Shown here piece by piece: positions 5,875 through 8,764 of a stretch of DNA of 8,764 bases. Every line of letters starts with the position of its first letter. Position 1 is the first letter of the stretch. The notes beneath the pieces are model-generated. The model saw only the letters and a program-made list of their open reading frames with translations, was not told the DNA's origin and made no database searches. The stretch is from a virus (Duplodnaviria; Heunggongvirae; Uroviricota; Caudoviricetes): the IMG/VR virus record IMGVR_UViG_2534681663_000019; one strand, written 5' to 3'. Both the position numbers and the translations under genes were made by a program.

Positions 5875-6513
5875 TTAAATATCTTGTTGAATTTTAAAGC
5901 ATACGCCCAATATGCAAGATAGATCATCCAGCATAATTGAAGGGTAGCGAGGATTCGTGGGGACTAAAAGAATATCCGGCCCTTCTATCTCCAGTTTACG
6001 AATGACAGGTGTTGTGGTCCCTTTGGGTAAGGCAAGGACAATATTTCCTGGTTGTACGGTTCGATCGGGATCAACAAAAACTGTTGAACCATTTGGGATG
6101 GAAACTCCCCCACCAGATGTTGACATACTGTCACTCTCTAGAACAACTGCAAAGGTATTGACCGGGATTTCTCCGACAAGCTGCACACAAGAGGTTATTG
6201 AGGAATTTTTCATATAATCACTCCAGCTTGCTGCCTGCTGAAGTGATAGTAGCGGAACCGTTTTTATCGGCGGTAAAGATAGATCAAGCGAATCACCTGT
6301 ATTTAACTCTCCTCCATTAAGAAGCCAATTTTCGTTTACTTTCAATATTTTTGCCAGTGAACTTATGTAACGCGAGGACGGCGCTCCTCCACCGTTCATC
6401 CATTGACTTACGGAGCCTTTTGATGCGCCAGTGCCATTGACAAGGTCTTTGCCTTTCAGGTTTAGCGCATGCATACGTTGGGTTATGCGTTCAGATATAG
6501 TTTGCTTGCTCAT
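5875..6513 (-). CDS. Prophage repressor, cI/LexA-like (N-terminal HTH plus C-terminal S24 autopeptidase domain, 212 aa)
   Basis: N-terminal HTH (ISERITQRMHALNLKGKDLVNGTGASKGSVSQWMNG). C-terminal domain has the S24 Ser/Lys dyad context (ESDSMSTSGG ... VIRKLEIEG) and a candidate cleavage region (QQAASW). Diverges from the Cro-like gene. No obvious SD, so possibly leaderless like lambda cI from PRM. Confidence 0.9.
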   Translation of the reverse strand: MSKQTISERITQRMHALNLKGKDLVNGTGASKGSVSQWMNGGGAPSSRYISSLAKILKVNENWLLNGGELNTGDSLDLSLPPIKTVPLLSLQQAASWSDYMKNSSITSCVQLVGEIPVNTFAVVLESDSMSTSGGGVSIPNGSTVFVDPDRTVQPGNIVLALPKGTTTPVIRKLEIEGPDILLVPTNPRYPSIMLDDLSCILGVCFKIQQDI

Positions 6514-7256: not shown

Positions 7257-7327
7257 CTGACAATAGCCATATCGAATCGCTTCCGGCAACTCGTGAGTAA
7301 AAAGATTCGGTATCAGAAGAGGTGAGT

Positions 7328-8398
7328 ATGGCTAACGCCTGGCTCAGATTATGGCATGACATGCCAAATGACCCTAAGTGGCGAACAATTGCCAGGGTGT
7401 CAGGGCAGCCAATTGCAACAGTGATGGCAGTGTATATCCACCTCCTGGTGAGCGCGTCACGAAATGTCACGCGAGGTCACATTGAGGTCACGACAGAAGA
7501 TTTGGCAAGTGCGCTCGACGTGACAGAAGAGGTAATTGATTCAATTTTGCAGACGATGCAGGGGCGGGTACTTGATGGTGATTTAATCACTGGATGGGAA
7601 AAACGCCAGGTGCTTAAAGAGGACAACGGCAATATTTCGCAAACCGCAAAATCTCCTGCAGAGCGCAAGAGGGCGCAGCGAGAGAGGGAAAGAAAGCGGG
7701 AACAAAATGGCGATTGTCACGGCGCGTCACGAAATGTCACGCATATGTCACGACGAGTCACGACAGATAAAGATACAGATAAAGATACAGATCAAGAAGA
7801 TCAAAACACTATGGTCCATGGCGTAAAAAACGCCACGAACCAGGCAGGGGATGTTCAGACCGTCACTCCTGGCCAGCCCGCAGGCACGACACCGGAAGCC
7901 GATTCAGCGTATGCGCTGAAAGCCGATTCGGGCGCTGTGCAGCAGGTGATGACCGCAAGGCAGGAGCAATCACACCAACTTCAGCAGCCTGAAGCCGATT
8001 CCGCCATTCAGCGGGAAGCCGATCGGGTAGTCCCGGAAAACACCGGGCAGTCTGTGGGACGAGTGGATTATCCGGATGTGTTCGAACAGGTCTGGCGGGA
8101 GTACCCGTTGCGTGCTGGGGCAAACCCGAAGAAATCCGCTTTCAGTGCCTGGAAGGCCAGATTACGCGAGGGGGTGCCACCAGAGGCCATGCTGGATGGC
8201 GTGAGGCGTTACGCAAGATACCTTGCGGCTACCGGGAAAACGGGAACGGAATTTGTTCAGCGAGCGACGACGTTTTTTGGACCGGACCGGAATTTTGAGA
8301 ACCCCTGGTTGCTCCCGGTAAGCGGCACGAACAACCAGCGTTGTGTGAATCATATTTCTGAACCGGATAACGAAATTCCGCCGGGCTTCAGGGGGTAA
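7328..8398 (+). CDS. Replication initiator / replisome organiser (O-like, 356 aa) with the origin iterons inside the gene
   Basis: ATG at 7328 preceded by GAGGTG. Its place after cro and the cII-like gene matches lambda O. The N-terminal region (ANAWLRLWHDMPNDPKWRTIA...) resembles phage replisome-organiser N-domains, and the C-terminal domain (VDYPDVFEQVWREYPLRAGANPKKSAFSAWKARLREG...) looks like a conserved interaction module. Two iteron clusters plus an AT-rich tract lie inside the ORF. Confidence 0.8.
   Translation: MANAWLRLWHDMPNDPKWRTIARVSGQPIATVMAVYIHLLVSASRNVTRGHIEVTTEDLASALDVTEEVIDSILQTMQGRVLDGDLITGWEKRQVLKEDNGNISQTAKSPAERKRAQRERERKREQNGDCHGASRNVTHMSRRVTTDKDTDKDTDQEDQNTMVHGVKNATNQAGDVQTVTPGQPAGTTPEADSAYALKADSGAVQQVMTARQEQSHQLQQPEADSAIQREADRVVPENTGQSVGRVDYPDVFEQVWREYPLRAGANPKKSAFSAWKARLREGVPPEAMLDGVRRYARYLAATGKTGTEFVQRATTFFGPDRNFENPWLLPVSGTNNQRCVNHISEPDNEIPPGFRG
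7452..7492 (+). repeat. Iteron cluster 1: four GTCAC(G/A) repeats phased at 10, 10, 11 bp
   Basis: GTCACG at 7456, 7466 and 7487, GTCACA at 7476. The 21-bp string GCGCGTCACGAAATGTCACGC (7452-7472) is repeated exactly at 7722-7742. Confidence 0.7.
7712..7812 (+). repeat. Iteron cluster 2 (five GTCACG repeats phased 10, 10, 11, 10 bp) plus adjacent AT-rich tandem repeat; probable replication origin
   Basis: GTCACG at 7716, 7726, 7736, 7747 and 7757, followed by the tandem 12-mer GATAAAGATACA x2 (7766-7789) and GATCAAGAAGATCAAAAC. Iterons followed by an AT-rich unwinding region is the lambda ori layout. Confidence 0.7.
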
Positions 8399-8423
8399 GT
8401 GTTAATTTCTGGTCATGAGGTAA

Positions 8424-8764
<341 letters not shown>

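Follow-up and report, generated by a model that had tools for sequence, protein, structure and literature searches.

The subject of this work is an 8,764-nucleotide stretch of viral DNA (Caudoviricetes; IMG/VR record IMGVR_UViG_2534681663_000019), here called the window, and in particular a replication initiator gene that occupies positions 7328–8398 of its plus strand. The coding sequence of this gene holds two arrays of short repeats (iterons) spaced about one helical turn apart, and the second array is followed directly by an AT-rich, purine-rich tract at 7763–7812. We propose, with a probability of roughly 78%, that the arrays are binding sites for the N-terminal domain of the encoded initiator and that, together with the tract, they make up the theta origin of the prophage. 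The repeats are selected as DNA and not as protein, as is seen in the third codon positions of homologous genes. An origin inside an initiator gene is a familiar arrangement; the unusual part is a conserved first array lying within codons for the DNA-binding domain.

Two phased iteron arrays in the initiator gene

Array 1 (7456–7492, plus strand) consists of four GTCAC(G/A) cores that start at 7456, 7466, 7476 (GTCACA) and 7487, and array 2 (7716–7762, plus strand) of five GTCACG cores at 7716, 7726, 7736, 7747 and 7757. The cores are spaced by 10/10/11 bp in array 1 and by 10/10/11/10 bp in array 2, and the arrays lie 270 bp apart from start to start. An initial annotation of this DNA had listed nine GTCAC(G/A) motifs in two phased clusters, and their coordinates and spacings were reproduced here. 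The accompanying elements that it described were found as well: an exact 21-bp repeat common to both clusters (GCGCGTCACGAAATGTCACGC, plus strand, 7452–7472 and 7722–7742; repeat family D6), repeated peptide segments that are read in the translation as SRNVTRGHIEVTT (residues 44–56) and SRNVTHMSRRVTT (residues 134–146), an inverted core, and a tandem 12-mer with an AT-rich tract after the second cluster. Each copy of the 21-bp repeat spans two iterons and seven codons and encodes ASRNVT. The single inverted core, CGTGAC at 7519–7524 (GTCACG on the minus strand), falls in codons 64–66, which encode the turn of the helix-turn-helix (HTH).

A theta origin embedded in a gene is expected to contain at least three regularly phased direct repeats, and the window has four plus five. 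Such repeats are also expected in linker-coding DNA, and this holds for array 2, which covers codons 130–145, after those for the winged helix (residues 1–94) and for a basic helix (residues 110–126). Array 1 departs from the rule: it covers codons 43–56 of the DNA-binding domain, which encode the end of helix 3, a loop, strand 1 and the N-cap and start of the HTH.

The plain number of GTCACR motifs in the whole window is unremarkable (13 against 7.4 expected, with 13 reached in 12 of 200 shuffles) and was rejected as a signal; clustering and phasing alone stand out. The best 5-mer of the gene forms seven pairs at a distance of 10 or 11 bp, while 5000 codon shuffles gave at most three such pairs and 5000 protein-preserving synonymous resamplings at most four. 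Phage Evi carries the same gene, and in its complete 40-kb genome arrays 1 and 2 are the sole runs of at least three GTCAC motifs with gaps of up to 23 nt, and no further array lies near its terminase gene or its promoters. With no other array in this genome, there is therefore no second origin of the kind represented by oriR of phage SPP1. A logo built from 181 repeat units holds little information beyond GTCACG itself. DnaA boxes show no enrichment (23 against 18.4 expected); none with less than one mismatch lies inside 7300–8400 and none is well placed. The sequence TATATCCAC, directly upstream of array 1, was considered as a DnaA box and dropped, because conserved Y-I/L-H codons explain the likeness and their third positions vary.

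The number of iterons differs between alleles. Escherichia albertii (L087) has six plus five, through a 21-bp insertion of two iterons and seven codons in array 1, and array 2 of Aeromonas has three cores, again a 21-bp difference; iteron number thus seems to change in frame-preserving 21-bp steps. Among 72 E. coli copies of the gene, 69 have the four-plus-five pattern and three carry a point mutation in one core.

Selection on the repeats as DNA

Constraint on the repeats was assessed in a codon alignment of 24 homologues that have the GTCAC core (52–85% identity in protein, 58–85% in DNA). Translation of the cores uses all three reading frames, giving A-S-R, N-V-T, R-G-H and E-V-T. A period of 10 or 11 bp shifts the reading frame from one core to the next, and therefore a repeated peptide cannot be the cause of the repeats. 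At four-fold degenerate third positions of codons with an invariant amino acid, the entropy is 0.20 bits inside the cores (n = 10) against a mean of 1.73 bits outside them (n = 27; Mann–Whitney p = 2.4e-6), the latter value placing synonymous sites in this alignment near saturation. Third positions in the spacers between cores are free (R45 1.55, R49 1.75 and I52 1.99 bits). Frozen synonymous sites occur in both arrays, and array 1 is constrained as strongly as array 2. At the inverted core, the third position of the Val65 codon has an entropy of 0.74 bits, which is below the typical value.

A two-array layout in distant homologues

The comparison was extended to homologous loci of alpha-, beta- and gamma-proteobacteria, 80 further ones coming from a scan in which each bacterial species was represented by one genome; in 84 loci, arrays were called by an automatic search for the best 10/11-phased 5-mer. 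A scan of viral contigs returned near-identical E. coli copies only, with no diversity. Among annotated phages, a protein search turned up homologues of the N-terminal domain at 70% identity in Aeromonas phage pAEv1818 and several Pseudomonas aeruginosa phages, and more distant ones in Ralstonia phages and metagenomic phages.

The initial annotation had looked to homologous initiator genes for a possible lack of the repeats. Array 2 is present in 77 of the 84 loci and both arrays in 61, so that this attempt at refutation failed; array 2 alone was called in 16 loci, array 1 alone in two, which may be incomplete, and neither array in five. In a control run, both arrays were called in 60 of 81 loci as against 0–1 of 81 codon-shuffled genes, and flanking DNA gave both arrays in none of 74 upstream stretches and in one of 77 downstream stretches. 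Genes from Aeromonas and Pseudomonas have GTCAC arrays at identical gene positions (129–160 and about 388–418), and both arrays are found at 36–70% protein identity in elements of Aeromonas, Pseudomonas, Bordetella, Ralstonia and sphingomonads. The gap between the arrays ranges from 127 to 319 bp, with a median of 227 bp. The inverted core is kept at the equivalent position (193, or 214 after a 21-bp insertion) in 18 of the 24 loci of the GTCAC clade, and a clade with GCAACG cores has inverted GTTGC at 172 and 202 in place of CGTGAC; this is suggestive only, and the inverted core is a candidate site weaker than the arrays.

The layout is kept while the core itself comes in several dialects, which track the clade of the protein and not the host. 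GTCACG is found in Escherichia, Aeromonas, Serratia, Pseudomonas, Bordetella, Acidovorax and Gilvimarinus; GTAACG in Pantoea, Enterobacter and Marinobacter; CGTCACG in Erwinia; CGAACGC in many beta- and alpha-proteobacteria, with a GAACGC core in a spring-water phage; GCAACG in Ralstonia (including phage Hennie), Cupriavidus and Burkholderia; and GTGACG in Paraburkholderia. The peptide encoded by array 1 changes with the core, from ASRNVTRGH to ASNATERGR, ASTATQGNADATRGN or ASSVTQGDADVTRGD. The N-terminal domain and the arrays stay constant as the C-terminal domain and the downstream genes are swapped between hosts, the gene downstream being a helicase gene in Aeromonas, a primase/helicase gene in Pseudomonas, dnaB in Ralstonia and a DUF977 gene in E. 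coli.

These comparisons bear on two other explanations of the repeats. The first holds that the arrays derive from a recent internal duplication or from a peptide motif (SRNVT...VTT) at the protein level, with no function as DNA; we give it next to no chance of being right. It can draw on the exact 21-bp repeat in both arrays of the window and on the similar peptides encoded at both places. Yet the period of the cores is no multiple of three, synonymous sites are frozen inside the cores only, resampled genes for the same protein never attain the observed phasing, and the loop peptide is replaced wholesale when the core changes. A recent internal duplication, one of two origins that the initial annotation had offered for the doubled array, is excluded because both arrays stand at the same positions in distant homologues. 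The exact 21-bp identity between the arrays is absent in Aeromonas and Pseudomonas, and in the window it may reflect recent gene conversion from one array to the other. Taken across genera, the sequences support a two-array layout that is ancient.

The second explanation is that the cores are bound by another protein, such as a host factor, the YdaT/CII-like or Cro-like regulator encoded nearby or terminase, and serve in transcription control or packaging. Short phased repeats do occur in pac and cos sites and in some operators, but here GTCACG accompanies the same N-terminal domain in E. coli, Pseudomonas, Bordetella and Gilvimarinus, where the neighbouring genes differ, and within the Enterobacterales the core shifts with the clade of that domain, to GTAACG in Pantoea and Enterobacter and to CGTCACG in Erwinia. 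The lack of arrays near the terminase gene and promoters of phage Evi and the lack of DnaA-box enrichment point the same way, and we consider another binder very unlikely.

The AT-rich tract beside array 2

The tract at 7763–7812 (plus strand) is made of 2.8 copies of ACAGATAAAGAT followed by CAAGAAGATCAAAACAC, and encodes TDKDTDKDTDQEDQN. Two copies of the 12-mer occupy 7763–7786 and a third, at 83% identity, runs up to 7798 (repeat family D5). With 72% AT and 70% purine on the plus strand, compared with 42–51% AT in its flanks, the tract is the GC minimum of the gene and has an A-over-T skew of 0.61. The third positions of its first codons (ACA GAT ... ACA; T146, D147 and T150) are invariant. 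No comparable AT-rich tract lies by array 1, the stretch at 7498–7714 having 51% AT.

In homologues, a run of the type (AGATAA / AGATAC / AGAGAA)n begins two to three bases past array 2, whatever the core. In 70 loci, the mean AT content of the 40 bases that follow the last core is 66.5% against 43.3% for the whole gene, the value being higher than that of the gene in 69 of them, and the purine content is 76% against 56%. In GC-rich hosts, the corresponding AT contents are 61% and 36%. An AT-rich element beside the repeats is thus present by composition, both at 7763–7812 and in 69 of the 70 loci. The tract has the place and composition expected of an unwinding element, and we regard it as a putative one.

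A motif CCCCCC(T)TA(A)CCCCCC, which encodes PPxxPP, directly follows the (GATAAA)n tract in many homologues (L003, L089, L092, L095, L098, L099, L108) and in ydaU of E. coli K-12 (L167); the window gene does not have it.

The initiator protein

The gene encodes a replication initiation protein of the replisome-organizer type, with no ATPase domain (356 amino acids, with stop). It belongs to PHROG 3729, ‘replication initiation protein’, with E 1.8e-256 over residues 1–356 against profile positions 1–356, and its RefSeq name is ‘phage replisome organizer’. At E<0.01 the whole protein matches no Pfam family and hence not the lambda O family (Phage_rep_O); the label ‘DNA replication protein O’ in some phage records was set aside as a name only. 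When the N-terminal 130 residues are compared with PF09681 (Phage_rep_org_N), the match covers profile positions 1–115 of 121 at 16.5 bits (E 0.0087), and 7 of 47 relatives match the same family, the best at E 3.3e-4. The protein is therefore a distant relative of PF09681 that stands outside its curated membership.

The N-terminal domain is encoded by 7328–7609 (plus strand, residues 1–94). An AlphaFold2 model with a predicted local distance difference test score (pLDDT) of 80.8 gives a winged helix with helices at 4–14, 16–25 and 29–45, a strand at about 50–52, HTH helices at 56–63 and 67–77, the latter being the recognition helix, and a wing at 78–88. This is a winged helix like those of DnaD and RepA_N, with a fold that resembles the N-terminal domain of DnaD. 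Past it, the model has a disordered stretch and then the basic helix (residues 110–126, AERKRAQRERERKREQ; 7655–7705, plus strand), whose codons lie between those of the winged helix and array 2. Four residues of this arginine-rich helix (R113, R118, E119 and R120) are invariant in five distant homologues, and it could add DNA contacts or mediate oligomerisation.

The C-terminal tail, ...VNHISEPDNEIPPGFRG (residues 333–356; 8324–8395, plus strand), is almost the same as the extreme C-terminus of E. coli DnaT. Residues 333–356 align with positions 156–179 of the 179-position NCBIfam profile PRK02854 at 19.3 bits, and the tail also matches DnaT in Protein Data Bank (PDB) entry 6aep (E 0.003). The protein is not a full-length DnaT (PRK02854 has a cutoff of 201 bits) and the rest of it is unrelated to DnaT; the DnaT-like tail accounts for the label ‘Primosomal protein I’ in phage records. 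Possibly, the tail is a handle for the helicase-loading machinery of the host. Phage Evi was found to have neither a helicase gene nor one for a helicase loader, so the tail may serve to hijack the restart primosome of the host or DnaB–DnaC.

In some short relatives of the N-terminal domain (P0043, P0061, P0062, P0071, P0104, P0106 and P0112), HNH endonuclease domains (PF01844, PF14279) replace the usual C-terminal domain.

A proposed origin and its working

An iteron origin embedded in the initiator gene is what the initial annotation had proposed, and the match to an initiator profile, the frozen cores and a conserved layout that co-varies with the protein all argue for it. Array 2 is probably the core initiator-binding array, and array 2 with the tract would form the core origin. 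Since the 6-bp cores recur once per helical turn, the winged-helix domains of initiator monomers would sit on them along one face of the DNA. Next to them, the (GATAAA/GATACA)n tract would then melt, and host DnaB would be recruited through the C-terminal domain, possibly by way of the DnaT-like tail, given that the phage has no helicase or loader of its own. Array 1, about 230 bp upstream and in the same orientation, with its cores pointing towards the tract, would be a second, ancient initiator-binding array. It could combine with array 2 into a single higher-order complex, with the intervening DNA looped or wrapped, or it could tune initiation. We infer the binding protein, the melting tract, the looping and the route of helicase recruitment from these sequence features.

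Several points weigh against this proposal. The match to PF09681 falls short of the gathering threshold of that family (23.3 bits), and a Foldseek search against the PDB gave no significant match. The identity of the binder is deduced from the co-variation of core and N-terminal domain, and a tightly linked partner protein would be an alternative. No fixed helical phase between the arrays was found across the loci, and the position of array 1 is set in part by the architecture of the protein. With 16 of 84 homologues having array 2 only, array 1 is therefore not indispensable to the family. Finally, a literature search that left out most subscription journals, such as those with older work on Rac oriJ, found no binding, unwinding or origin activity for this initiator family. 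The same search, again with subscription journals mostly outside it, found no description of this origin or of GTCACG iterons, and an older description of the origin is possible.

What array 1 contributes can be read in more than one way. It may be a regulatory site and no part of the origin proper, with array 2 and the tract firing alone; array 1 would then block transcription from pR (autoregulation), titrate the initiator, or pair with array 2 or a sister copy in the manner of handcuffing and so hold back re-initiation. That only array 2 adjoins an AT-rich tract, that the distance between the arrays varies, and that array 1 is missing from the 16 loci agrees with such a role, as does ori-lambda, which in vitro needs just the two iterons nearest its AT-rich region (PMC7466680). 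Nevertheless, its synonymous sites are held as tightly as those of array 2, it is kept in the orientation of array 2 in 61 of 84 loci from three proteobacterial classes, and extra upstream iterons of Shiga toxin (Stx) phages, though weakly bound, are needed for efficient replication (PMC7466680). On these points array 1 is equally possible as an auxiliary origin element and as a regulator; a purely regulatory role we hold to be possible but rather doubtful.

More tentative still than the origin as a whole is the idea that array 1 is the obligatory half of a bipartite origin, in which the two arrays bridge, loop the roughly 230 bp between them and drive melting of (AGATAA)n; this we put forward as a minority possibility. 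If it were true, initiator and origin would be a self-specifying cassette, because array 1 is part of the coding sequence for the domain by which it is read. Specificity would then shift only by concerted change of protein and sites, and this would explain why there are at least five iteron dialects and why N-terminal domain and arrays are exchanged as one module. Between the two explanations of the doubled array in the initial annotation, the bipartite origin is the better reading, with a predicted function.

Comparison with known origins

In ori-lambda, the origin lies in the middle of gene O, in the linker-coding part, with iterons followed by an AT-rich region (PMC7466680). In SPP1, oriL combines direct repeats with an unwinding element that is AT-rich, inside gene 38 (PMC5737612, PMC6316719), and the Rep boxes of pSK41 are placed in the centre of rep, where the encoded peptide is a dispensable linker (PMC5703833). 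Array 2 with its tract matches this pattern of an origin within an initiator gene.

The likeness to ori-lambda extends to the order of parts, as ori-lambda and the proposed origin both have iterons and an AT-rich tract between the codons for a DNA-binding domain and those for a C-terminal recruitment domain. Both lie downstream of cro- and cII-like genes in a rightward early operon, and in both the iteron number varies between alleles in frame-preserving steps, lambdoid O genes having four to six iterons. The iterons of lambda are inverted repeats of about 19 bp bound by dimers of O, whereas here the cores are 6-bp direct repeats every 10–11 bp. Also unlike ori-lambda, the window gene has a further array, some 230 bp upstream, where the DNA-binding domain is encoded; its protein lies outside the lambda O family, and there is no P-like loader gene.

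With G38P, the replisome organizer of SPP1, the window protein shares the absence of an AAA+ domain and the repeats and AT-rich element within its gene; its RefSeq name, ‘phage replisome organizer’, and its weak full-length match to PF09681 fit this likeness. No pairwise similarity between the two proteins is detectable (best BLASTP E 0.36). In gene 38 the repeats are confined to the middle of the gene (about 360–450 of 771), with no array in the N-terminal coding part. SPP1 further differs in having a distant second origin, oriR, and its own helicase and loader, all of which phage Evi is without.

RepA_N iterons are longer than those found here and semi-palindromic (PMC7145576). RepA_N proteins form a plasmid family of Firmicutes, no upstream array has been described in the region coding for their N-terminal domain, and the window protein has no match to PF06970. 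By comparison, then, the window initiator stands outside the lambda O, RepA_N and (at threshold) PF09681 families, although in broad terms it would work as they do.

Two separate clusters of initiator sites within one replicon are known from P4, with its ori and crr. The same is true of the origins of phage-inducible chromosomal islands (PICI), including Staphylococcus aureus pathogenicity islands (SaPI), and of oriC in Bacillus subtilis and Helicobacter pylori (PMC6092414, PMC3479198). In PICI origins, however, the two sets flank an AT-rich region outside the gene, whereas here both arrays are within the gene and to one side of the tract, and the bipartite chromosomal origins of B. subtilis and H. 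pylori use DnaA.

A specialist would expect an origin at this place; the two-array design throughout the family and the overlap of codes are the noteworthy part, and further unusual features are the very short cores at helical-turn spacing, the iteron dialects and an (AGATAA)n tract shared with unrelated N-terminal domains. The origin of an initiator gene that is widespread in E. coli has seemingly been undescribed so far, and the features given here provide a map of candidate initiator sites, unwinding tract and host-recruitment tail for a large family of proteobacterial prophage initiators below the Pfam threshold. Array 1 is a natural case of overlapping protein and DNA codes, seen as frozen synonymous sites, and the arrays explain a patch of apparently extreme codon conservation. 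From the arrays, incompatibility groups can also be predicted for Rac-like prophages, and the dialects with their matched protein clades could be used to study how the DNA specificity of a winged helix changes.

Possible exchange of modules with Rac and Stx phages

The ydaU gene of the Rac prophage in E. coli K-12 (L167, 2620–3477) has a different N-terminal domain (DUF1376) and different mid-gene repeats, TGTTCAAAC, two of them direct and one inverted. Its GATAAAGATACAGATAAAGATCTAAAA tract and its ...IPPGFRG tail are those of the window gene. In some Stx phages, what is shared is limited to the C-terminal 160 codons (query 721–1199), at 82% identity. As ydaU has the tract and tail in common with the window gene and these phages the C-terminal codons only, the sequences suggest two modules that can be exchanged separately, namely the N-terminal domain plus iterons and the C-terminal domain. 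The comparison with Rac suggests a junction near the tract, and similarity to the Stx phages starts further downstream, at about 7920. It is possible that the tract itself is a recombination joint, and the repeats of ydaU may mark Rac oriJ.

Prophage setting and neighbouring genes

The window corresponds to the early region of a lambdoid E. coli/Shigella prophage that resembles Rac. Its genes are, in order, those for an integrase, an excisionase, a RecE-like exonuclease, a LexA/CI-type repressor (5875–6513, minus strand), a P22-Cro-like protein, a YdaT-like protein and the initiator. Of 5426 complete E. coli genomes, 1647 contain the initiator gene over 80% or more of the query length, and isolated temperate phages such as Evi and Tritos (both functional) and vB_EcoS-640R1 carry it at 97–99% identity.

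Downstream of the initiator, a DUF977 gene, which begins at 8441, is interrupted about 97 bp past the initiator stop codon by the insertion sequence (IS) element IS100 of the IS21 family (about 8496–8764, with the istA start at 8583). Homology to uninterrupted prophages stops at 8495–8496. A GTCACG at 8497 was considered as a third site and rejected as part of the IS100 end, since the element is inserted at about 8496.

Copies 98–100% identical to the E. coli gene also occur on very short contigs labelled as a Collinsella metagenome-assembled genome (L164) and as Staphylococcus saprophyticus (P0019), and these are probably the result of contamination or mis-binning.

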